A stretch of DNA of 64,000 nucleotides from TPA_inf: Saccharomyces (taxonomy: Eukaryota): contig BK006941.2 in assembly GCA_000146045.2 (NCBI GenBank), forward strand, positions 672,001 through 736,000, written 5' to 3'. The notes beneath the pieces were generated by a model. That model saw only the letters and a program-made list of their open reading frames with translations, made no database searches and was not told where the DNA came from. A program made the translations under genes and the position numbers. Each line of letters opens with the position of its first letter. Position 1 is the stretch's first letter. Below, piece by piece: positions 4,621-64,000 of this stretch.

Positions 4621-5565
4621 ATGTTCAAAGAGGAGGACTCGTTAAGAAAAGGGCAAAATGTGGCCGCGTGGAAAACTTTGTTGGCTGGCGCCGTATCCGG
4701 GCTGCTTGCCCGTAGCATAACTGCTCCCATGGATACCATTAAGATCAGATTGCAATTGACCCCTGCAAATGGGCTGAAGCCCTTCGGAAGTCAGGTCATG
4801 GAGGTGGCCAGAAGCATGATAAAGAACGAAGGCATCCGGTCCTTTTGGAAGGGTAACATACCCGGTTCTTTGCTGTACGTTACCTATGGCTCAGCGCAGT
4901 TTAGTTCATACTCCCTTTTTAATAGATATTTAACTCCATTTGGACTAGAGGCGCGCTTACATAGTCTTGTTGTCGGAGCCTTTGCTGGCATAACCAGTTC
5001 CATCGTTTCCTACCCGTTCGATGTTTTACGGACCCGACTAGTTGCCAACAACCAGATGCACTCAATGAGCATCACGAGAGAAGTGCGTGATATCTGGAAA
5101 CTAGAAGGTCTCCCCGGATTTTTCAAGGGCTCCATCGCGTCAATGACAACCATAACTCTAACCGCATCTATAATGTTCGGAACATACGAAACAATCAGGA
5201 TATACTGTGACGAAAACGAAAAAACGACCGCCGCGCATAAAAAATGGGAACTGGCTACTTTAAATCACAGCGCTGGTACCATTGGCGGCGTCATTGCTAA
5301 GATCATTACTTTCCCCCTCGAAACGATCCGTAGGCGAATGCAGTTCATGAATTCGAAGCATCTGGAAAAGTTCTCCCGTCATTCGTCTGTATACGGTTCT
5401 TATAAAGGGTACGGATTCGCAAGAATCGGTTTACAGATTTTGAAACAAGAAGGTGTGAGTTCGCTTTACAGAGGTATTCTGGTGGCCCTTTCCAAGACAA
5501 TACCCACCACTTTTGTGAGTTTCTGGGGGTATGAAACTGCCATCCATTATTTGCGGATGTACTAA
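4621..5565 (+). CDS. TPC1: Mitochondrial thiamine pyrophosphate carrier (mitochondrial carrier family)
   Basis: The protein has three mitochondrial-carrier repeats (PMDTIKIRLQ, PFDVLRTRL, PLETIRRRMQ). Trimming to the Met at 4621 (MFKEEDSLRKGQ) gives 314 aa. Confidence 0.85.
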   Translation: MFKEEDSLRKGQNVAAWKTLLAGAVSGLLARSITAPMDTIKIRLQLTPANGLKPFGSQVMEVARSMIKNEGIRSFWKGNIPGSLLYVTYGSAQFSSYSLFNRYLTPFGLEARLHSLVVGAFAGITSSIVSYPFDVLRTRLVANNQMHSMSITREVRDIWKLEGLPGFFKGSIASMTTITLTASIMFGTYETIRIYCDENEKTTAAHKKWELATLNHSAGTIGGVIAKIITFPLETIRRRMQFMNSKHLEKFSRHSSVYGSYKGYGFARIGLQILKQEGVSSLYRGILVALSKTIPTTFVSFWGYETAIHYLRMY

Positions 5566-27786: not shown

Positions 27787-28674
27787 TGCTTTAACTTTAC
27801 AGTTCGATTCTTATTATATATAGTCACAGCAGTGGTTATTATCAATGACTTTTTACCCTTTTTATTCTTGCTATAAACTTATCAACAGTTTGCTCTTATA
27901 AGAAATAGCGTTCTTTCTTTCTTTCGTGTAATGTGACACAATTTTGCTATTGCGGAAACTGCAGCATAGTCAGTGTAATAATCGTACTGTTGCTTTTTCA
28001 TTTTTTTTTTTTTTTTTTTTTTTCTCATATAGAAAAACTGTTATTGAATGTTTTGACTAGTCTCATGAAATAAACATTAATAGTTACTAAAGGGTTCACA
28101 GCAACTATGAGAGGAACAAAGGTCACACAAATGATATCCCTTGTGTTCAATTGCTGCTAATTATCCGTGGCGGTTTCACTTGTATTATAACAACGAAGCG
28201 TATCTCAGACAGAAGTTATCGTACTGTTCTCATAATAATGATGAGGTGCGTTCTTTCTGACGCTCCGTACAAAGTGGTAATGTTGCACCAATTGTTCAAA
28301 CGTTTCTTTCGTTTATAAAAAGAATTTCTTAACAATTCAGAGATAATTGAAATAGCGACATGAAGTTATGAGCTTCCTTCAATCTCATTTTTCGTGTTTT
28401 ATTCCTTTCAAGAGATGGTTCGGACACACCTCATTTATCAATAGAGATGCCTCAGATATGAAAATACTTGTGGATTTTGTAAAGATTCAACCTGTATGGT
28501 CTGCGTGGATTGCCACTTATAGGGCTTTTCAAATTAGTATTTTAAAGGAGTTAGATCGGTTTCAAAAGGTCATGCTCCGGAGTAATTGACTTGATTTTGC
28601 AAAGCTTCACTTAAATGGCGTATCTTCCTTTTATAAATTGCGTTTGCTTTATTCCCTTACCCAACAGATGAATT

Positions 28675-28756
28675 GGTACTCTGGCCGAGTGGTCTAAGGC
28701 GTCAGGTCGAGGTCCTGATCTCTTCGGAGGCGCGGGTTCAAACCCCGCGGGTATCA
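28675..28756 (+). tRNA. tL(GAG)G: tRNA-Leu (anticodon GAG), type II with long variable arm
   Basis: GGTACTCTGGCCGAGTGGTCTAAGGCG… folds into a cloverleaf. The acceptor stem is GGTACTC/GGGTATC, the T-arm is GCGGG-TTCAAAC-CCCGC, and the variable stem-loop is CTCTTCGGAG. The anticodon loop TCGAGGT gives anticodon GAG. Confidence 0.8.
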
Positions 28757-28952
28757 ATATTTTTTTGAATCTACGCACTTCAATAAGAATTAGGCTGTTA
28801 GGATAGCATTTTTTTTCTATGTACCAAAAGTATTCATACGTGGCTCCTTGTTACCCCACAAAACTTTTTTAGACTTGAGTGAGCTGAAAGACACCTAAAA
28901 GGAAGGACATTCCATTGATGGCTATTGTAGCCAAAAAATTAAAAAAGAAGAA

Positions 28953-29048: not shown

Positions 29049-29136
29049 TGAGTTCTTCATTTTTTCTGTAGTACTCTCTTGTACTTGCTATCTAGTAAAA
29101 GATAAAGATTGAGAAACAGTCACTAAATTTAATAGA

Positions 29137-29345
29137 AGCTAAGATGCAAGGATTGATACTGTATTAGGATAATGTAATATATAAAACGGAAGGAGAAATA
29201 ATCGCAATATTATTATGTAGAAATACTGATTCCATTTTGAGAATTCCTATATCCTGGAGGAGAACTTCTAGTATATTATGTATATACCTAGTATAATAGC
29301 GTTTACCAATACTGGAATCTCAATGATTATCAGATTACTCACGAA
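29137..29345 (+). repeat. 5'-truncated Ty1/Ty2 delta LTR fragment
   Basis: The fragment matches the delta core …GCAAGGATTGATA…TGTAATAGGATAATG…GATTCCATTTTGAGAATTCCTATATCCTGGAGGAGAACTTCTAGTATAT…CTGGAATCTCAATGATTA…. The first roughly 120 bp of a canonical delta are missing. Confidence 0.75.
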
Positions 29346-33051: not shown

Positions 33052-33358
33052 AGGTGCTAGCCTACACAGAAAACCAAAATCTCACTTCCTTACTTTATCA
33101 TCTATTTTATAGAAAAATCAGGCATTCATTATTCATATAACGGTTATCTCATATATATTATCACACGGTATCAGTTTTGTAGGCTGTAATAATTAATTCA
33201 TTTATAAATTTTTTCTCCCATAATTGGAAAATTATCTTTAAAGTGAGGAATAATGCATTTTCTTTCTTTTTTTGAATACATAAAAGAAATAAAGAAGTAT
33301 GTCTATCGATGATATTTAAGATGCAGGGGGTTAGCTGGCTATAATTTTGATCTATGTT

Positions 33359-34501
33359 TCAACGTTTTTGTTTACACCAGTCAAAAACCTTGAAATAAAC
33401 CATGCCATGTTTAGGCTTTTTGTATTTAAGTCTCAAGGAATCTAGATTCGTATCAGGTACAGCAATATCTTCAACTAGTTCACTGATAAAATCCTTAAAC
33501 GCTGGATCTGATTCAATATCAATGCCGCCACTATAATGAATAAAAGTTTCATCCCATTTGGAATTTTCATTTTTAATTTTTCTGGCGATATACATGGACA
33601 TTGCAGCTAAATATGATGGCTTCAGGTGGATGAATTTATTACAACAAATCGAATATTCCATGATGAATTTGGCCATGTTCCTTGTTTCAATGCAGTAATT
33701 GTCAGCTTTTGAAATTCTCCTAATGAAATTTAGGGGGTTTGGTAGAGATATGTTATAACCTAAAGAACTTAGAACGAATAGCTCAGCCTTCCTAATTCCT
33801 TCGACAGTGGCAGCACCGTCAGTCACGTACGCAAAATTTGTTATTTTTGGTAATTTAACTTCTTCAAATTTACAGGCAATGAACAGGCAAGTGATGCATA
33901 GTAGTTGTAATTTATTCAATTTAACAACATTTTGTGATAAAAATCGATCTAGCAGGTTGATCGCTAAAAATAATGTTTCAGGTAAGCAGTGAAATTTCTC
34001 ATGAACTTCAACCAACCAGTCAATTAACAGCGCCCTCATGGAGCTTTTCAAATGATAGGGAGATTGCGTGTCCATTAAATAGTTATGTGTCGGTAGCATT
34101 TGGATTTCCTTCTCGTAAAGATGAGAAAATATAGAATCTGTATATTCTGCTACCATGAATGGATCATCCATCTCTATCGAATCCAAATTTTTCCATTGAT
34201 GACATTTTATTTTTTTCACAGTTTTTGGCTCTATAGGATCGGTTGAATCATTTGATAATTGTCTCTTTCTTGTTTTTTCCAAATGGGTGGAATCTCTTTG
34301 CAATTTACCTCGAGGGAGTTGTAAAGAATCGATTTTGTTACTGTTTACCTCGGATAGAACTTTTTTTTCATTCGTAGAGTGAGGTGTCAAGTTAATTGAA
34401 CTTTCTCTTGGAATGGTATGGAAAGCATTTTCCTTGCCTATACAATCTTCATTATTAATTTGGATTTTCCTTTCACTAATTGGACTAGGGATACAATTCA
34501 T
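33359..34501 (-). CDS. CLB6: B-type S-phase cyclin
   Basis: The minus-strand ORF is 380 aa with a cyclin box (MRALLIDWLVEVHEKF… FIACKFEEVKLP). It lies tail-to-tail with CLB1. Confidence 0.88.
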   Translation of the reverse strand: MNCIPSPISERKIQINNEDCIGKENAFHTIPRESSINLTPHSTNEKKVLSEVNSNKIDSLQLPRGKLQRDSTHLEKTRKRQLSNDSTDPIEPKTVKKIKCHQWKNLDSIEMDDPFMVAEYTDSIFSHLYEKEIQMLPTHNYLMDTQSPYHLKSSMRALLIDWLVEVHEKFHCLPETLFLAINLLDRFLSQNVVKLNKLQLLCITCLFIACKFEEVKLPKITNFAYVTDGAATVEGIRKAELFVLSSLGYNISLPNPLNFIRRISKADNYCIETRNMAKFIMEYSICCNKFIHLKPSYLAAMSMYIARKIKNENSKWDETFIHYSGGIDIESDPAFKDFISELVEDIAVPDTNLDSLRLKYKKPKHGMVYFKVFDWCKQKR

Positions 34502-34861
34502 TTTAAAAATTTAAAAGGAGGGAGAGAATATCAGAGAATAATAATTTTCAACACACTGATTTGTATGTTGTATGAACGCTAGATTAGTGAAGCTTGTTAT
34601 TATTTAATAAAAGATAAAAGTCACTTGTATGAAATGAAGCAGTTATATATATGTTAATAAGAAAAAGGCAAAAACTTAACCCTAGCAAAAAAGGTAATCA
34701 ATGTGCTAAAACGGTAAATATTTAAACGCAGGTTGCGAATTGCCAATTGCCAATTGTAGGATACACAGGGAGAGTAGAAACAACCAAGTCCTGTGTCCTG
34801 TGGTAGACCCACTTGTTTTACCGCAGAGGGCCCTTTTTTTGTTTACCGTCGCAAAAAAAAA

Positions 34862-34938
34862 ACGCGAAGAATACGCGTTGGTCGTTAAATTTTGTGGTAC
34901 GCGTAAAACTGCTATTTGGTATCCTCTTTAGGGACGCG
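34862..34938. promoter_or_regulatory. Cluster of MluI cell-cycle box (MCB, ACGCGT/ACGCGN) elements in the CLB6 promoter
   Basis: ACGCGA lies at 34862-34867. ACGCGT lies at 34873-34878 and again at 34899-34904. GACGCGCC lies at about 34933-34938. All are 360-440 bp upstream of the CLB6 ATG. Confidence 0.7.
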
Positions 34939-35107
34939 CCCATTGTCTATACGGTAATATAGGGCTTTCTTCATTACCTGCTTGCGTCAATTAGCTTTAC
35001 TCATGTAACACATAATAACCTCTTACATTGTAATGAGGCCCAAAAAAAAAAAAAGAACATCTTCAAAAAAAAAAAACTTTCATGGAAGGACCACCTAGTT
35101 AATAAAA

Positions 35108-35179
35108 AGCTCGCACTCAGGATCGAACTAAGGACCAACAGATTTGCAATCTGCTGCGCTACCACTGCGCCATACGAGC
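35108..35179 (-). tRNA. tC(GCA)G: tRNA-Cys (anticodon GCA)
   Basis: The reverse complement is GCTCGTATGGCGCAGTGGTAGCGCAGCAGATTGCAAATCTGTTGGTCCTTAGTTCGATCCTGAGTGCGAGCT, with anticodon GCA in the loop …GATTGCAAATC…. Confidence 0.88.
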
Positions 35180-35194
35180 TTGATTTTCTGAAAG

Positions 35195-35534
35195 TGTTGT
35201 ATCTCAAAATGAGATATGTCAGTATGACAATACGTCACCCTGAACGTTCATAAAACACATATGAAACAACCTTATAACAAAACGAACAACATGAGACAAA
35301 ACCCGACCTTCCCTAGCTGAACTACCCAAAGTATAAATGCCTGAACAATTAGTTTAGATCCGAGATTCCGCGCTTCCACCACTTAGTATGATTCATATTT
35401 TATATAATATATAAGATAAGTAACATTCCGTGAATTAATCTGATAAACTGTTTTGACAACTGGTTACTTCCCTAAGACTGTTTATATTAGGATTGTCAAG
35501 ACACTCCGGTATTACTCGAGCCCGTAATACAACA
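35195..35534 (+). repeat. Ty3 5' sigma LTR
   Basis: See the Ty3 element entry. Ends are TGTTGT…ACAACA. Confidence 0.95.
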
Positions 35535-35609
35535 CCTGGTAGCGTTAAAGGTTACTAATTGTTCAAACGAACCATCGAAAAGCCGAACCTAGCTACACCA
35601 CACCCCAGT

Positions 35610-36482
35610 ATGAGCTTTATGGATCAAATCCCAGGAGGAGGAAATTATCCAAAACTCCCAGTAGAATGCCTTCCTAACTTCCCGATCCAACCATCTTTGA
35701 CCTTCAGAGGTAGAAATGACTCGCATAAACTGAAAAACTTTATCTCCGAAATAATGTTAAACATGTCTATGATATCTTGGCCGAATGATGCCAGTCGTAT
35801 TGTGTACTGCAGAAGACATTTATTAAACCCCGCTGCTCAGTGGGCTAATGACTTTGTACAAGAACAAGGTATACTTGAAATAACATTCGACACATTCATA
35901 CAAGGATTATATCAGCATTTCTATAAGCCACCAGATATCAATAAAATCTTTAATGCAATCACGCAACTTTCCGAAGCTAAACTTGGTATTGAGCGTCTCA
36001 ACCAACGATTCAGAAAGATTTGGGACAGAATGCCACCAGACTTCATGACCGAAAAAGCTGCCATAATGACATATACTAGGCTATTGACAAAGGAAACCTA
36101 TAATATTGTCAGAATGCACAAACCAGAGACATTAAAAGACGCCATGGAAGAGGCTTACCAGACAACTGCACTAACTGAAAGATTCTTCCCAGGATTCGAA
36201 CTTGATGCTGATGGAGACACTATCATCGGTGCCACAACCCACTTACAAGAAGAATACGACTCTGACTATGATTCAGAAGATAATCTGACCCAGAATGGAT
36301 ACGTCCATACCGTAAGGACAAGAAGATCTTACAATAAACCAATGTCAAATCATCGAAACAGGAGAAATAACAACCCATCTAGAGAAGAATGTATAAAAAA
36401 TCGGCTATGCTTCTATTGTAAGAAAGAGGGACATCGCCTGAACGAATGTAGAGCACGTAAGGCGAGTTCTAACCGATCTTGA
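35610..36482 (+). CDS. GAG3: Ty3 Gag (capsid-nucleocapsid) with CCHC zinc knuckle
   Basis: The 290-aa protein starts at MSFMDQIPGG. The zinc knuckle is CFYCKKEGHRLNEC. The track ORF starts at an upstream in-frame Met at 35559. Confidence 0.9.
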   Translation: MSFMDQIPGGGNYPKLPVECLPNFPIQPSLTFRGRNDSHKLKNFISEIMLNMSMISWPNDASRIVYCRRHLLNPAAQWANDFVQEQGILEITFDTFIQGLYQHFYKPPDINKIFNAITQLSEAKLGIERLNQRFRKIWDRMPPDFMTEKAAIMTYTRLLTKETYNIVRMHKPETLKDAMEEAYQTTALTERFFPGFELDADGDTIIGATTHLQEEYDSDYDSEDNLTQNGYVHTVRTRRSYNKPMSNHRNRRNNNPSREECIKNRLCFYCKKEGHRLNECRARKASSNRS

Positions 36483-39400
36483 ACTCGAATCAAAAGACCA
36501 ACAAACTCCTTTTATCAAAACCTTACCAATTGTACACTATATCGCCATCCCCGAGATGGACAATACCGCCGAAAAAACCATAAAAATACAAAACACGAAA
36601 GTAAAAACCCTGTTTGACAGTGGATCACCCACGTCATTTATCCGAAGAGATATTGTAGAACTTCTCAAATACGAAATCTACGAGACCCCTCCACTCCGTT
36701 TTAGAGGATTCGTAGCCACCAAATCCGCCGTTACATCCGAAGCAGTCACCATTGACCTCAAAATCAATGACCTGCATATAACTTTAGCCGCGTACATACT
36801 GGATAACATGGACTACCAATTGTTAATTGGAAATCCAATCTTACGCCGCTACCCGAAAATCCTGCACACAGTACTGAATACCAGAGAGAGCCCCGACTCC
36901 TTAAAGCCCAAGACTTATCGCTCCGAAACCGTTAATAACGTTAGAACCTACTCCGCTGGTAATCGTGGTAACCCCAGAAACATAAAACTGTCTTTTGCCC
37001 CCACCATTCTCGAAGCAACTGACCCGAAATCCGCTGGTAATCGTGGTGACTCCAGAACCAAAACCCTGTCTCTTGCAACCACTACTCCTGCAGCAATTGA
37101 CCCGCTTACGACCCTTGATAACCCAGGTAGTACTCAAAGTACATTTGCGCAATTCCCGATACCTGAAGAAGCGAGCATCCTAGAAGAGGATGGAAAATAC
37201 TCCAACGTTGTCTCAACCATTCAGAGTGTAGAACCTAATGCTACTGATCACAGCAATAAGGACACCTTTTGCACTTTGCCAGTTTGGTTACAACAGAAGT
37301 ATAGAGAGATCATACGTAATGATCTCCCACCAAGACCTGCCGACATTAATAACATCCCCGTAAAACATGATATTGAAATTAAACCTGGCGCAAGACTACC
37401 TCGACTACAGCCATACCATGTTACAGAAAAGAACGAACAAGAAATCAACAAAATAGTTCAAAAACTGCTCGATAACAAGTTCATTGTTCCCTCAAAGTCG
37501 CCTTGCAGCTCCCCTGTAGTCCTCGTCCCGAAGAAAGACGGTACCTTCCGACTCTGCGTCGATTACCGCACCCTGAACAAAGCTACCATCTCCGACCCAT
37601 TCCCATTACCCAGAATCGACAACCTATTGAGCCGTATTGGAAATGCCCAGATATTTACCACGCTAGATTTGCATAGTGGTTACCACCAGATCCCGATGGA
37701 ACCCAAAGACCGCTACAAAACCGCCTTTGTCACACCATCCGGTAAGTATGAATATACCGTCATGCCATTTGGCTTAGTCAATGCACCTAGTACATTCGCA
37801 AGATACATGGCTGATACATTTAGAGACCTGAGATTCGTCAATGTTTACCTTGATGATATATTAATATTCTCCGAATCTCCAGAAGAACATTGGAAACATT
37901 TAGACACGGTACTAGAAAGATTAAAGAACGAGAACCTCATTGTTAAGAAGAAAAAATGTAAATTTGCATCTGAAGAAACTGAGTTTTTAGGCTATAGTAT
38001 TGGAATCCAGAAAATAGCTCCACTACAGCACAAATGTGCAGCAATCCGAGACTTTCCGACGCCTAAAACAGTAAAACAAGCACAGAGATTTTTAGGAATG
38101 ATTAATTACTACAGACGATTCATTCCAAATTGCTCCAAGATTGCACAGCCAATCCAACTGTTTATTTGTGACAAAAGTCAATGGACAGAAAAACAAGACA
38201 AGGCAATTGATAAACTAAAAGACGCCTTGTGTAACTCCCCCGTCCTAGTACCATTCAACAACAAAGCAAACTACCGACTTACAACAGACGCCTCAAAAGA
38301 CGGCATTGGTGCTGTTCTAGAAGAAGTCGACAACAAGAACAAACTTGTTGGTGTCGTCGGTTACTTCTCTAAATCCTTAGAGAGTGCCCAGAAAAACTAT
38401 CCTGCTGGCGAATTAGAACTACTTGGAATTATCAAAGCACTCCACCACTTCCGATATATGCTTCACGGAAAGCATTTCACGTTAAGAACAGACCACATTA
38501 GTTTGTTATCATTACAAAACAAGAACGAACCCGCACGACGCGTGCAACGCTGGTTAGATGACCTAGCCACATATGACTTCACCTTAGAATACCTAGCTGG
38601 ACCCAAGAACGTTGTCGCAGATGCCATATCCCGTGCCGTATATACTATAACCCCCGAAACATCCCGACCTATCGACACAGAAAGCTGGAAATCTTACTAC
38701 AAATCAGACCCATTATGTAGTGCTGTCTTAATTCATATGAAAGAATTGACACAACACAACGTCACACCTGAAGATATGTCAGCCTTCCGTAGTTACCAGA
38801 AGAAACTCGAACTATCAGAGACCTTCCGAAAGAATTATTCCCTAGAAGACGAAATGATCTATTACCAAGACCGACTAGTAGTACCAATAAAACAACAGAA
38901 CGCAGTTATGAGACTATATCATGACCATACCTTATTTGGAGGACATTTTGGTGTAACAGTGACCCTTGCGAAAATCAGCCCAATTTACTATTGGCCAAAA
39001 TTACAACATTCGATCATACAATACATCAGGACCTGCGTACAATGTCAACTAATAAAATCACACCGACCACGCTTACATGGACTATTACAACCACTCCCTA
39101 TAGCAGAAGGAAGATGGCTTGATATATCAATGGATTTTGTGACAGGATTACCCCCGACATCAAATAACTTGAATATGATCCTCGTCGTAGTTGATCGTTT
39201 TTCGAAACGCGCTCACTTCATAGCTACAAGGAAAACCTTAGACGCAACACAACTAATAGATCTACTCTTTCGATACATTTTTTCATATCATGGTTTTCCC
39301 AGGACAATAACCAGTGATAGAGATGTCCGTATGACCGCCGACAAATATCAAGAACTCACGAAAAGACTAGGAATAAAATCGACAATGTCTTCCGCGAACC

Positions 39401-40254
39401 ACCCCCAAACAGATGGACAATCCGAACGAACGATACAGACATTAAACAGGTTACTAAGAGCCTATGCTTCAACCAATATTCAGAATTGGCATGTATATTT
39501 ACCACAAATCGAATTTGTTTACAATTCTACACCTACTAGAACACTTGGAAAATCACCATTTGAAATTGATTTAGGATATTTACCGAATACCCCTGCTATT
39601 AAGTCAGATGACGAAGTCAACGCAAGAAGTTTTACTGCCGTAGAACTTGCCAAACACCTCAAAGCCCTTACCATCCAAACGAAGGAACAGCTAGAACACG
39701 CTCAAATCGAAATGGAAACTAATAACAATCAAAGACGTAAACCCTTATTGTTAAACATAGGAGATCACGTATTAGTGCATAGAGATGCATACTTCAAGAA
39801 AGGTGCTTATATGAAAGTACAACAAATATACGTCGGACCATTTCGAGTTGTCAAGAAAATAAACGATAACGCCTACGAACTAGATTTAAACTCTCACAAG
39901 AAAAAGCACAGAGTTATTAATGTACAATTCCTGAAAAAGTTTGTATACCGTCCAGACGCGTACCCAAAGAATAAACCAATCAGCTCCACTGAAAGAATTA
40001 AGAGAGCACACGAAGTTACTGCACTCATAGGAATAGATACTACACACAAAACTTACTTATGTCACATGCAAGATGTAGACCCAACACTTTCAGTAGAATA
40101 CTCAGAAGCTGAATTTTGCCAAATTCCCGAAAGAACACGAAGATCAATATTAGCCAACTTTAGACAACTCTACGAAACACAAGACAACCCTGAGAGAGAG
40201 GAAGATGTTGTATCTCAAAATGAGATATGTCAGTATGACAATACGTCACCCTGA
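36462..40254 (+). CDS. POL3: Ty3 Pol (protease, reverse transcriptase, RNase H, integrase), expressed as a Gag-Pol fusion by +1 ribosomal frameshift
   Basis: The +1-frame ORF overlaps the GAG3 end. The frameshift heptamer GCGAGTT lies at 36462-36468. The protease DSGS motif is at LFDSGSPTS. RT motifs are at …FTTLDLHSGYHQIPM… and YLDDILIF. The integrase has an HHCC finger (HDHTLFGGH…CVQCQ) and DD35E residues. The start coordinate given is the frameshift site, not an ATG. Confidence 0.88.
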
Positions 40255-40545
40255 ACGTTCATAAAACACATATGAAACAACCTTATAACAAAACGAACAA
40301 CATGAGACAAAACCCGACCTTCCCTAGCTGAACTACCCAAAGTATAAATGCCTGAACAATTAGTTTAGATCCGAGATTCCGCGCTTCCACCACTTAGTAT
40401 GATTCATATTTTATATAATATATAAGATAAGTAACATTCCGTGAATTAATCTGATAAACTGTTTTGACAACTGGTTACTTCCCTAAGACTGTTTATATTA
40501 GGATTGTCAAGACACTCCGGTATTACTCGAGCCCGTAATACAACA
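40206..40545 (+). repeat. Ty3 3' sigma LTR
   Basis: Same sequence as the 5' LTR. Confidence 0.95.
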
Positions 40546-41708
40546 GAAAGTTCCATTTTGGATGCTCTATTTATGGGAATATGACTATACGAATGTCACC
40601 CACGATGGCCGGAGTAGCTGTGATGAGCATCTTTTTGTCCTGGGCGGCTTAAAACGTGAGCAAAATTGTACTGTAAATTACTTACGTTATCAATGGAAGT
40701 GTGTGAATTTCGTGATAAAATTATTGTCAGAATAGTGACTTCATTATTCTTTATAACTAACCATTAGGATCATATAAGTAATCAGATGCAGTTCGTCATT
40801 AATATGTCAGGATGGATAACCATAGGTAAGCACGTGATTATGGAAGGACAGTAAAGTTACCGATCTACTTTTTTGAATGATCAACTTGGTGTTTTCATCT
40901 ATAAGGATATGGGTCGTTACATTGAAACTATAGTAAAAGATCTCGTTATTGGTATATCGGTCATAATGAAGATGAAATAGTCGGTATGTATTTTTATACC
41001 CCCCCCTATATGGTAAAAAGGTTAAGATTCATATTTAAATCTTCATTAATACCACCTCTAATTTCTAATTACCAACATTTTTAACTCCACTTTTATTATA
41101 TGCTATATACAACATTATGTAAAAGGAGTATACCAAAAATTCTCCTTCATAATATAGGAATTCACAAAATGGAACCGATATCTCCGCATAATGCTATTAT
41201 CATTTCTTACTCGTTTTATACATTGTCATTCATTATCTTATTGCATTTGCAATCCTTGTTTTCCGGCTTCTGTGAAATTTGACGACTGATTCTCAATTTT
41301 ATGTCATCTTTTTACACTTATATATGACAATATACTAGTAGTATGAAGACTAATCAACGGAGGTTATTTGATTTCTATTCTAACTTATTTGAACATATAT
41401 AATTTGTAAATTTTATGCAGATTAGACTTGGGAGTTATCACAACATTTTGTCAGTGTTTAGCCTCTTTCACCTTTGCCTTTTTCAGCCTTTTTTGTGTAA
41501 ATTGATGGTGTAGTTTGTTTCTGAAAGGGCTCTTTTTATTTTTTTCGCTTCCGCCGTTCGTTATTGGATAATCCCCGAAATATGCTAGAGTGGCTGATAC
41601 ATTATAGAACATAAAAGTGAGCTGCAATGAGCACTCAAGCACGTTATTGACAAGGATAACGGAAAGGTACACTAATACTTATACTGATTAATAAGGGTTA
41701 GCCTTTTA

Positions 41709-43046
41709 ATGTTCAAGTCAACTTTAAACTCCATAATAAGAAGACCCTTGAAAGGTTTTCAACTTCTTAGAGGGGCTGACTCATCGAATACACGGCCACA
41801 GTCCCCTAGAGCCTCCGCAAGAGATGTTACAGAGAAACAGATATTAAGAACTCCGTCAGCACCAACTGCAATACCATTAAGGGAGATTATCTATAGAGTC
41901 CCAAGCTTGTTTCCTCGCCCTTTAGAAGATTCTGTTAAGGACTTCCGAGATTTTATCAAGAACGAGGATGCATTCCAGACTGAACTTTTGAAAACGCTGC
42001 CATTCTACCCCACTCCTTCGGAATCAAAAACAGCAAGACTTATAAGAACTGTTGTTGATGATGAGGGCAATTACATCAATGAATTTTGCATACGCCCTCG
42101 AAAAACCTCAGTGCCTGAGGCTGACTTAAAACATCTGGTTTTCATTCATGGGTATGGCGCCGGATTGGGTTTTTTCATCAAGAATTTTGAGGATATTCCA
42201 CTATTGGATAACGAGTGGTGCATACATGCCATCGATTTGCCTGGGTATGGTTTTTCTTCAAGACCTAAGTTTCCGTTCGAGTATCCGAGAGATAATATTC
42301 ACAGCGTTCAAGATTGGTTTCACGAAAGAATACACACATGGTTTAGTAAAAGAAATCTTTTGAACCGACCTGAGAAAAACATTGTTATGGCACATTCTTT
42401 AGGGTCTTACTTGATGGCTTTATATTTGCAAAAATATAAGGAATCTCCATCTTTTAAAAAGCTGATCCTTTGTTCCCCAGCAGGCGTGTCTTATAGAGAT
42501 TTCAACAATACTGCTTCAGAGGTTGAAAAATGGAAACCGCCTCCTTGGTGGTATGTCAAGCTTTGGGACAGAAATATCTCGCCTTTTACACTAGTAAGAA
42601 ATTTTCGCCAGTTAGGTTCGAAGATTACAAGTGGATGGTCATATCGGCGCTTTAAGCACATTTTGAATGGTGATCCAGAACAGTCAAAACGGTTTGAAGC
42701 CTTGCATAGATACGCATATGCTATTTTCAATAAACGTGGTTCAGGTGAATACTTATTAAGCTTTGCTTTGAAATGTGGTGGTGAACCAAGACTATCATTG
42801 GAGCAGCAGCTATTCGATGGCAAAAAGTCTGATATTTTAAAGAATAGTAATTGTGACTGGCTTTGGCTTTATGGCGATGACGATTGGATGGATGTGAATG
42901 GTGGACTTAGAGTATCAAGATTCTTGAAAGAGAAGTTGAAACAAAAAAGTAACGTCATCATTGTTCCTCATTCAGGGCATCACTTGTACCTGGATAACTA
43001 TAAGTTTTTCAATAATATTCTTACGAAAGAAATGCAAAAAATATAA
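41709..43046 (+). CDS. CLD1: Mitochondrial cardiolipin-specific deacylase (alpha/beta hydrolase)
   Basis: The ORF is 445 aa with a GxSxG lipase motif (AHSLGSY) and an HGYGAG oxyanion region. Confidence 0.85.
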
Positions 43047-63143: not shown

Positions 63144-63540
63144 ATTGAATCAAACGCCGTTCGAACGTAGAGGTCAATAGTCTATATGAATAATATTTTT
63201 AAGGTCTACTCTACTATGAATTTTGCATAAAAATATACACATGTTAGAATAAGGAAACCACTATCTACTAATCACGGCTAACCACTGCAAACAATGGCAT
63301 TATTTACTAATATAATTATGTGTGTTGGAGTGAGAATCAATTATAGTCTACCGATCTGGTGCTCTTGTCAGCAGTATATTATTTTTGAGAAGAACTTTCC
63401 TTTTTTTTTTATGTATACGTAATGATCAGAATTTTTTAATAAAGATGTACTTCAAAAGCTTTTTTTAATATTCATAGTAGAATTTAGTGAATAATTTGAT
63501 AATTGTTGGGCTTCCATTGTTGGTAAAGGCTATTATATTA

Positions 63541-63885
63541 GTTTTGGAATAAAAATTCAACTATCGTCTATCAACTAGTAGTCATACTACCAGTATATTA
63601 TCATATACGGTGTTAGATGGTGACATAGGTTATGAGAAGCTGTCATCGAAGTTAGAGGAAGCTGAAGTGCAAGGATTGATAATGTAATAGGATAATGAAA
63701 CATATAAAACCGAATGAGAAATAATCGTAATTGTATTACATAGGGACACCAATTCCATTTTGAGGATTCCTATATCCTCGAGGAGAACTTTTAGTATATT
63801 TTCTGTACTAATATTATAGCTTTTACCGATAATTGAATCCTAACAGTAATCTCAAAATTCACCAATTTCCCACAACTATCGCAAA
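63541..63885 (+). repeat. Diverged solo delta (Ty1/Ty2 LTR)
   Basis: It begins …TTGGAATAAAAATTCAACTATCGTCTATCAACTAGTAG… and includes …GAAGCTGAAGTGCAAGGATTGATAATGTAATAGG… and …CCATTTTGAGGATTCCTATATCCTCGAGGAGAACTTTTAGTATAT…. It runs for about 340 bp. Both end coordinates are approximate. Confidence 0.7.
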
Positions 63886-63980: not shown

Positions 63981-64000
63981 TTGTTGTATCTCAAAATGAG
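63981..64000 (+). repeat. First 20 nt of a sigma (Ty3 LTR) running off the window edge
   Basis: TGTTGTATCTCAAAATGAG is identical to the first 19-20 nt of the sigma LTRs at 35195 and 40206. Confidence 0.6.

Follow-up and report, generated by a model that had tools for sequence, protein, structure and literature searches.

The locus considered here raises a twofold question: is the Ty3-like element that lies beside a tRNA-Cys gene in a 64,000-nucleotide stretch of Saccharomyces DNA (the window, whose numbering is used throughout) an intact, young and potentially transposition-competent retrotransposon, as a first-pass annotation had proposed, and which element is it? The second part can be answered with near certainty: the element is YGRWTy3-1 (YGR109W-A plus YGR109W-B), the Ty3 LTR retrotransposon of S288C-type Saccharomyces cerevisiae chromosome VII that is both full-length and active. 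It is therefore an already known, named and long-studied reference element and no discovery.

Boundaries and cis-acting sites

The anatomy of the element can be read directly from the window, where two sigma LTRs are flanked by a duplicated target site and enclose the priming sites for reverse transcription:

35190..35194 and 40546..40550, no strand assigned: 5-bp target-site duplication GAAAG, from sequence reading
35195..35534, plus strand: 5′ sigma LTR, 340 bp
35537..35544, plus strand: primer-binding site, 5′ part, TGGTAGCG, 2 nt after the 5′ LTR, from a motif search
40192..40205, plus strand: polypurine tract GAGAGAGAGGAAGA, directly adjoining the 3′ LTR, from a motif search
40206..40545, plus strand: 3′ sigma LTR, 340 bp

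The two LTRs, which the first-pass annotation had judged identical by eye, agree at 340 of 340 positions with 0 mismatches when aligned, as seen by direct comparison, repeat detection and blastn alike, and their identity ends exactly at the LTR edges, with 0 nt of extension on either side. At their ends the LTRs carry an 8-bp inverted repeat (TGTTGTAT...ATACAACA) of the kind expected of Ty3, and both copies of the GAAAG duplication noted earlier are intact. Taken together, the mismatch-free 340-nt repeat with its sharp edges, the identical 5-bp flanks and the empty sites present in other strains (see below) exclude a chance pattern. Within the 5′ LTR, TGAAACA occurs at 35262 and TATA-like runs occur at 35332 and 35401-35414. 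Initiator tRNA-Met can pair through its 3′ end with the 5′ part of the primer-binding site. The Ty3 primer-binding site is described as bipartite, the frameshift site is published as 1046-GCGAGUU-1052, and the polypurine tract, given the coordinate 4776, has the same sequence as that found here (PMC11381356). Back-calculation from these coordinates places the +1 of the genomic RNA near 35417; as 1046 and 4776 both lead to this very base, no net length change separates the window from the SGD reference element between the frameshift site and the polypurine tract.

Coding capacity

Two overlapping frames occupy the interior of the element:

35610..36482, plus strand: GAG3 (YGR109W-A), open frame of 290 aa
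36462..36468, plus strand: +1 frameshift heptamer GCG AGT T, in GAG3 phase 0
36442..40254, plus strand: POL3 reading frame (part of YGR109W-B), with PR, J region, RT, RNase H and IN

Gag3 comprises a capsid domain and a CCHC zinc knuckle (residues 267-280), and matches Pfam Ty3_capsid (8e-79) as well as PDB entries 6R22 and 7Q5B. POL3 lies in the +1 frame relative to GAG3, overlaps it by 41 nt and terminates 49 nt inside the 3′ LTR (stop codon 40252-40254). Both frames had been called open end to end, and neither contains an internal stop; joined at GCGAGTT, which is in phase, they yield 1547 aa followed by a single terminal stop. The Ty3 domain set is complete in Pfam, with Peptidase_A2B, RVT_1, RT_RNaseH, Integrase_H2C2, rve and SH3 succeeding one another in Pol3 in the PR-RT-RNase H-IN order of gypsy elements. 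Translation, the check suggested at first, also shows intact catalytic residues, numbered here along the 1547-aa fusion: the protease DSG (D336), D686, D748 and D749 of RT (YLDD), D893, E934, D961 and D1004 of RNase H (D-E-D-D), and, in the integrase, the HHCC residues H1104, H1112, C1142 and C1145 and the D,D,35E residues D1175, D1236 and E1272. Two tandem 78-nt (26-aa) repeats, 80% alike, are located in the PR-RT intervening region (36952..37104, plus strand).

Identity of the element

The Ty3 identity proposed at first rests on more than domain architecture. In a cluster look-up, UniProt Q99315 and PDB 7Q5B ("Transposon Ty3-G Gag-Pol polyprotein") both agree with the 1547-aa Gag3-Pol3 fusion exactly and over its full length; Gag3 and S288C NP_058162.3 are likewise identical. 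Alignment with 7Q5B_A is residue-for-residue identical over blocks extending to approximately residue 1238, and Pol3 is identical to a third structure, 4OL8, except for an engineered D-to-N change in the crystal. The neighbouring ORFs are exactly Clb6 and Cld1 of S288C, and the element lies between CLB6/tRNA-Cys and CLD1, where the gene order of chromosome VII places YGRWTy3-1. In comparison with YGRWTy3-1 of S288C (also called Ty3-1 or Ty3-G), no difference was seen in any of the features compared: the proteins are exactly the same, the neighbours (CLB1, CLB6, tRNA-Cys and CLD1) are shared, and the frameshift site and polypurine tract stand at the published spacing. No evidence against the identification emerged from the analysis.

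The second full-length Ty3 of S288C, YILWTy3-1 ("Ty3-I"), belongs to the same family, and Gag residues 1-285 score nearly equally against PDB 6R22 ("Ty3-I") and against Ty3-G. YILWTy3-1 nevertheless differs in occupying another chromosomal site, outside the window, and in not being the active copy, by elimination from PMC11381356.

Insertion at the tRNA-Cys gene

The position of the element relative to its target was read directly from the following features:

33359..34501, minus strand: CLB6 ORF, 380 aa, exact S288C Clb6
35108..35179, minus strand: tRNA-Cys(GCA) gene (Rfam RF00005, 62.7 bits; ARAGORN, anticodon GCA)

ARAGORN gives the tRNA gene a span of 35107-35180; the minus strand has a T5 terminator immediately beyond its 3′ end (35102-35106), and an Rfam scan of 34000-42000 returned nothing besides this gene. 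The mature tRNA 5′ end is separated from the LTR by 15 nt (35180-35194), the distance given in the first-pass annotation, and GAAAG occupies -11 to -15 relative to that end. In tRNA sense the upstream sequence reads CTTTC, then AGAAAATCAA, then G(+1). In the duplication, the C closest to the tRNA gene is followed by A, which fits the ttCAan start motif described together with the criteria for integration at Pol III start sites (PMC6673722). With the transcription start site deduced from this motif, the assignment of the insertion to the Pol III start site of tRNA-Cys is supported and appears to conform to those criteria, in line with the Pol III-targeted position proposed at the outset.

On the far side of the tRNA gene, 693 bp separate the CLB6 ATG from the LTR, and ACGCGT boxes are found at 34873 and 34899, between that ATG and the tRNA-Cys gene; the earlier placement of the element about 700 bp upstream of CLB6 and beyond its MCB boxes was thus accurate. 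An influence of the insertion on tRNA-Cys expression, or on that of CLB6 at a distance of 693 bp, would be a host effect not yet described, and we consider it distinctly unlikely. Either pheromone-induced LTR transcription or substitution of the TFIIIB-binding DNA that originally preceded tRNA-Cys could produce such an effect; the tRNA-Cys gene intervenes between Ty3 and the MCB boxes of CLB6 and might just as well serve as a barrier.

Activity and proposed life cycle

S288C/BY4741 contains two full-length Ty3 copies, YGRWTy3-1 being the transpositionally active one (PMC11381356). The transposition competence of the copy in the window is taken from this literature, in the light of which the initial wording, "potentially transposition-competent", understated the case. 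Ty3-1 has already been put through marked-element transposition assays. It might be objected that the copy is structurally intact yet dead, owing to a missense change or a cis-acting defect that would not appear as a stop or frameshift, since open frames and motifs are no proof of activity and only one of the two full-length S288C copies is reported to be active. This is hardly credible: YGRWTy3-1 is precisely the copy named as active (PMC11381356), its protein equals the Ty3-G polyprotein residue for residue, an integrase deposited under the same 1547-aa sequence (PDB 7Q5B) formed an active intasome in vitro and carried out TFIIIB-dependent integration (PMC8632968), and the primer-binding site, polypurine tract and frameshift site are as in the published sequences.

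For an active YGRWTy3-1, the following cycle would be expected from the literature, including work on Ty3 targeting (PMC8632968, PMC6673722). First, Pol II would produce an RNA of ~5.05 kb extending from the 5′ LTR to the 3′ LTR. Gag3 would be translated directly and Gag3-Pol3 by way of a +1 frameshift at GCG-AGU-U, and the polyproteins would be cut by the protease within virus-like particles. Reverse transcription, primed by initiator tRNA-Met at the primer-binding site and by the polypurine tract, would then regenerate two identical LTRs. Next, an integrase tetramer would dock on TFIIIB (Brf1 and TBP) upstream of a Pol III gene and perform strand transfers with a 5-bp stagger at the transcription start site. 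At this locus such an event would account for an element that lies 15 nt away on the upstream side of tRNA-Cys and points away from it, the tRNA gene and its internal promoter being intact.

Insertion polymorphism and age

The assemblies compared constitute a sample rather than a survey (24 of the 740 index blocks with CLB6, 10 places being listed). A clean empty site is present on chromosome VII in twelve further S. cerevisiae assemblies (L001-L010, L015 and L016), which represent no fewer than two accession series (GCA_00097x and GCA_9473xx): the junctions are continuous and free of Ns, contain exactly one GAAAG and have perfect flanks on both sides. In one of them, L010, no more than 7 substitutions over ~21 kb set the sequence apart from the window. 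The filled site with the same duplication is present in two assemblies, of which L011 shows a 1-nt difference, located inside Ty3, and identical LTRs, while L012 (CM029095.1) is 100% identical to the window over 16.9 kb. These alleles support a recent insertion, seen among the sampled assemblies only on the S288C-type haplotype. Zero LTR differences bound the age only loosely, the LTRs being 340 bp long; the twelve empty sites, one of them on a near-identical haplotype, back the earlier claim of youth independently of LTR identity.

That the insertion is old and its LTRs were homogenised by gene conversion has very little in its favour. Conversion between LTRs is known in LTR elements generally and would be compatible with LTR identity taken alone, but an old insertion should be shared across diverged haplotypes or have left solo LTRs, and no sigma sequence was detected in any of L001-L010. 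The one-GAAAG empty sites, above all that of the closely similar L010, and the confinement of the insertion to S288C-type carriers differing by 0-1 nt are equally at odds with it.

Exact-sequence look-ups for Gag3 and for the 1232-aa POL3 ORF in the indexed assemblies matched the chromosome VII site alone and no other site; there is therefore no sign of daughter copies in these assemblies. Ty3 copies of the same family and organisation occur in L013-L016, with ~99.0-99.4% nucleotide identity to the window and ~39-70 substitutions per element over the internal blast pieces; identity falls to 97.7% over one GAG3-side block in L016. These copies carry the 26-aa PR-RT repeat in 1 or 3 copies as opposed to 2 in the window, and wherever the tRNA-Cys site can be read none of them occupies it. 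In the scaffolded assemblies L013, L015 and L016, runs of 100 Ns flank the Ty3 contig on both sides. For the wild strains YJM1248, YJM1439 and YJM271, consecutive protein accessions had suggested a Ty3 between CLB6 and CLD1. These three strains were not accepted as evidence for a shared or independent insertion at the tRNA-Cys site, because the Ty3 contig is N-bracketed, with both ends inside LTRs, and so is not anchored in place, and because the site is cleanly empty in L015 and L016. The N-bracketed contigs do show that Ty elements are troublesome in these assemblies, but the idea that the empty sites are artefacts of collapsed or dropped Ty sequence, and the polymorphism unreal, is scarcely tenable, since a dropped repeat would give a gap or a solo LTR rather than the precise, N-free pre-integration site with one GAAAG and perfect flanks on which all twelve assemblies agree.

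Relation to other retroelements and significance

Ty3 shares with the Metaviridae (Ty3/gypsy) and retroviruses the LTR-PBS-gag-pol-PPT-LTR layout, the PR-RT-RNase H-IN order and the 5-bp duplication, and its enzymes are homologous to RT and IN of foamy virus, MLV and HIV. Despite this relatedness, Ty3 differs from these groups generally in that it lacks env, employs a +1 rather than a -1 frameshift, and integrates at Pol III start sites by way of a TFIIIB tether (PMC8632968).

For sequence annotation, the value of the locus is that of a positive control, in that a reading of raw sequence was right about the limits of the element, about its duplication and frames, and about its target position and relative age. 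YGRWTy3-1 is the reference copy of a retrotransposon that ranks among the best studied, and Ty3 serves as the model in work on integration targeted to Pol III genes, on +1 frameshifting, and on the structure of capsid and intasome. If the unlikely host effect were true, S288C-type strains would differ from many empty-site strains. The empty allele on a near-identical haplotype, in turn, marks the insertion as one that arose recently in the S288C lineage and is segregating there.

Structure and identity of the element

The two sigma LTRs of the Ty3 element, at 35195-35534 and 40206-40545, are 340 nt each and were aligned by script without a mismatch (340/340), the identity extending 0 nt past either edge, left or right. 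An 8-bp inverted repeat (TGTTGTAT...ATACAACA) is found at the LTR termini, and both LTRs are bordered directly on the outside by GAAAG (35190-35194 and 40546-40550). The same LTR pair was recovered by a repeat search of the window and by a blastn search of the whole window with the LTR as query. Identical LTRs and an intact 5-bp duplication, as described in the first-pass annotation, are thereby established.

Features of the element and its flanks (window coordinates)
33359-34501, minus strand: Clb6 ORF, exact S288C match
35108-35179, minus strand: tRNA-Cys(GCA) gene, Rfam
35610-36482: GAG3, 290 aa
36442-40254: POL3 open frame, +1 frame relative to GAG3, 41-nt overlap
36462: frameshift heptamer GCGAGTT, GAG3 phase 0
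41709-43046: Cld1 ORF, exact S288C match

Fusion of the GAG3 and POL3 frames at the heptamer yields a 1547-aa product whose sole stop is the terminal one; both frames are thus open end to end, as had been claimed. Gag3 harbors the Pfam domain Ty3_capsid and a CCHC knuckle, while Pol3 comprises, in order, Peptidase_A2B (the Ty3 protease), RVT_1, RT_RNaseH, Integrase_H2C2, rve and a Tf2-type SH3 domain. Translation revealed all catalytic motifs of the protease (DSG), reverse transcriptase (LDL and YLDD), RNase H (all four carboxylates) and integrase (HHCC and D,D,35E). The cis elements are in place as well: TGGTAGCG lies 2 nt past the 5′ LTR and GAGAGAGAGGAAGA adjoins the 3′ LTR. A structural study of Ty3 RNA assigns the numbers 1046-1052 to the frameshift site and 4776-4789 to the polypurine tract (PMC11381356); back-calculation from either landmark places RNA +1 at window base 35417, which indicates that the element carries no net length change between them relative to the SGD reference on which that study relied. 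A 78-nt (26-aa, SAGNRG...) tandem repeat between protease and reverse transcriptase is present in two copies in the window (36952-37104), in three in the Ty3 copy L014 from another strain (1496-1729; Pol3 ORF 1258 aa) and in one in the copy L016 (9343-9420); the protease-reverse transcriptase junction region varies in repeat copy number between assemblies.

In the blocks compared, to about residue 1238, no residue of Pol3 differs from PDB 7Q5B chain A ("Transposon Ty3-G Gag-Pol polyprotein", 1547 aa), and Pol3 equals the Ty3 RT/RNase H crystal construct 4OL8 except for the construct's Asp-to-Asn change in RNase H. Gag3 matches 7Q5B and 6R22. By exact-sequence look-up, the fusion is UniProt Q99315/7Q5B and Gag3 is identical to the S. 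cerevisiae S288C entry NP_058162.3. Since these proteins and the flanking Clb6 and Cld1 all match exactly, the element is YGRWTy3-1 (YGR109W-A plus YGR109W-B), an already known, experimentally characterised reference copy. The S288c genome contains 45 Ty3 insertions, of which two are full-length and belong to a young, low-diversity clade (Carr et al., PMC3511429).

Target site

The tRNA-Cys gene, divergently oriented to Ty3, was placed by Rfam at the coordinate already annotated; the ARAGORN call is one base longer at each end. Counted to the Rfam gene end with the duplication included, 15 nt separate the LTR from the mature tRNA 5′ end, exactly the distance first proposed. In tRNA sense, the order is LTR, CTTTC, AGAAAATCAA and G(+1), the duplication occupying -11 to -15 with the C of TTTCAGA as its tRNA-proximal base at -11 and an A at -10. 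Genome-wide mapping has located the proximal end of Ty3 duplications no more than 20 bp from the mature tRNA end and near the C of a ttCAan start motif (PMC6673722), a pattern that the present position fits, the tRNA-Cys start site being predicted from the motif. Upstream of Pol III genes, Ty3 integrase binds TFIIIB (Brf1 and TBP), and because its C-terminal chromodomain acts as a ruler, integration is confined to a few base pairs at the start site, and the target gene stays intact (PMC8632968). By analogy with this established Ty3 biology, TFIIIB-bound integrase would have directed start-site integration at tRNA-Cys.

The LTR lies 693 bp from the CLB6 ATG (34501). The stretch from this ATG to the tRNA gene contains two ACGCGT boxes (34873, 34899) plus two more ACGCG cores, in agreement with an element about 700 bp upstream of CLB6 and beyond its MCB boxes. 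Nothing in the analysis pointed to an influence of Ty3 on CLB6. In the CLB1-CLB6 intergenic region, window position 33215 differs from nine of the ten other strains in the comparison, L010 with its nearly identical sequence among them, and may be private to the S288C lineage.

Other Ty sequences in the region

The window end cuts another sigma LTR, of which the initial 19 nt (TGTTGTATCTCAAAATGAG) occupy 63982-64000; a further Ty3 LTR lies just beyond, presumably with a Pol III gene. Degenerate delta-like (Ty1/Ty2 LTR) fragments at 41129-41383, 63538-63869 and 29102-29275 (71-73% alike by blastn), one about 580 bp right of Ty3 and one near tRNA-Leu, are unremarkable remnants of old LTRs upstream of tRNA genes. 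A solo delta LTR with an ATAAC duplication is present in L013 (5948-6280), another strain's locus; its window counterpart is 28187-28191, upstream of tRNA-Leu (28674-28757). Present in at least one other strain and absent from the window, it makes the region polymorphic for a second Ty insertion; L015 bears delta-like sequence at the same place (294-487), beside an N run. The Ty3 contigs of L013 (7574-12983), L015 (7625-12893) and L016 (7561-12900) end inside LTRs on both sides and are bracketed by 100-N runs, so that their annotated position near CLB6/CLD1 is not fixed by sequence and may reflect reference-guided scaffolding.

Empty and filled sites

Ten chromosome-scale S. cerevisiae assemblies were retrieved through contigs encoding exactly this Clb6. 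Their CLB6-CLD1 intervals all fall short of the window's by about 5356 bp, and neither sigma nor internal Ty3 sequence was found in the 21-kb locus of any of them. In every case, a single GAAAG, exactly 5 bp, is shared by the left and right flanks. Across the junction, the six loci that matched an exact 20-mer probe have the sequence ...TTGATTTTCT GAAAG TTCCATTTTGG..., and the blastn coordinates of the flanks show the same arrangement in the remaining four. L010, whose site is likewise empty, is separated from the window by just 7 substitutions and 8 indel columns across about 21 kb. A clean empty site is also present in L015 and L016.

Two other loci, L011 and L012, also have the insertion, placed as in the window and flanked by the same duplication. 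Over 16.9 kb, no difference separates L012 from the window. In L011, a single C-to-T change lies within Ty3, at 37324, and the LTRs are identical; this locus otherwise matches the window fully from 31158 onward, and its divergence to the left of that point is suggestive of a mosaic strain that shares the S288C-type segment. Among the indexed assemblies, the exact 1232-aa POL3 ORF occurs at no other site than this one.

Precise excision is not known for LTR retrotransposons, in which recombination between the two LTRs leaves one solo copy behind; the ancestral state is thus the empty site. This evidence backs the recent insertion proposed in the first-pass annotation without relying on LTR identity. 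The original observation is thus confirmed in full and its interpretation supported: Ty3 entered this site recently, on the S288C-type haplotype.
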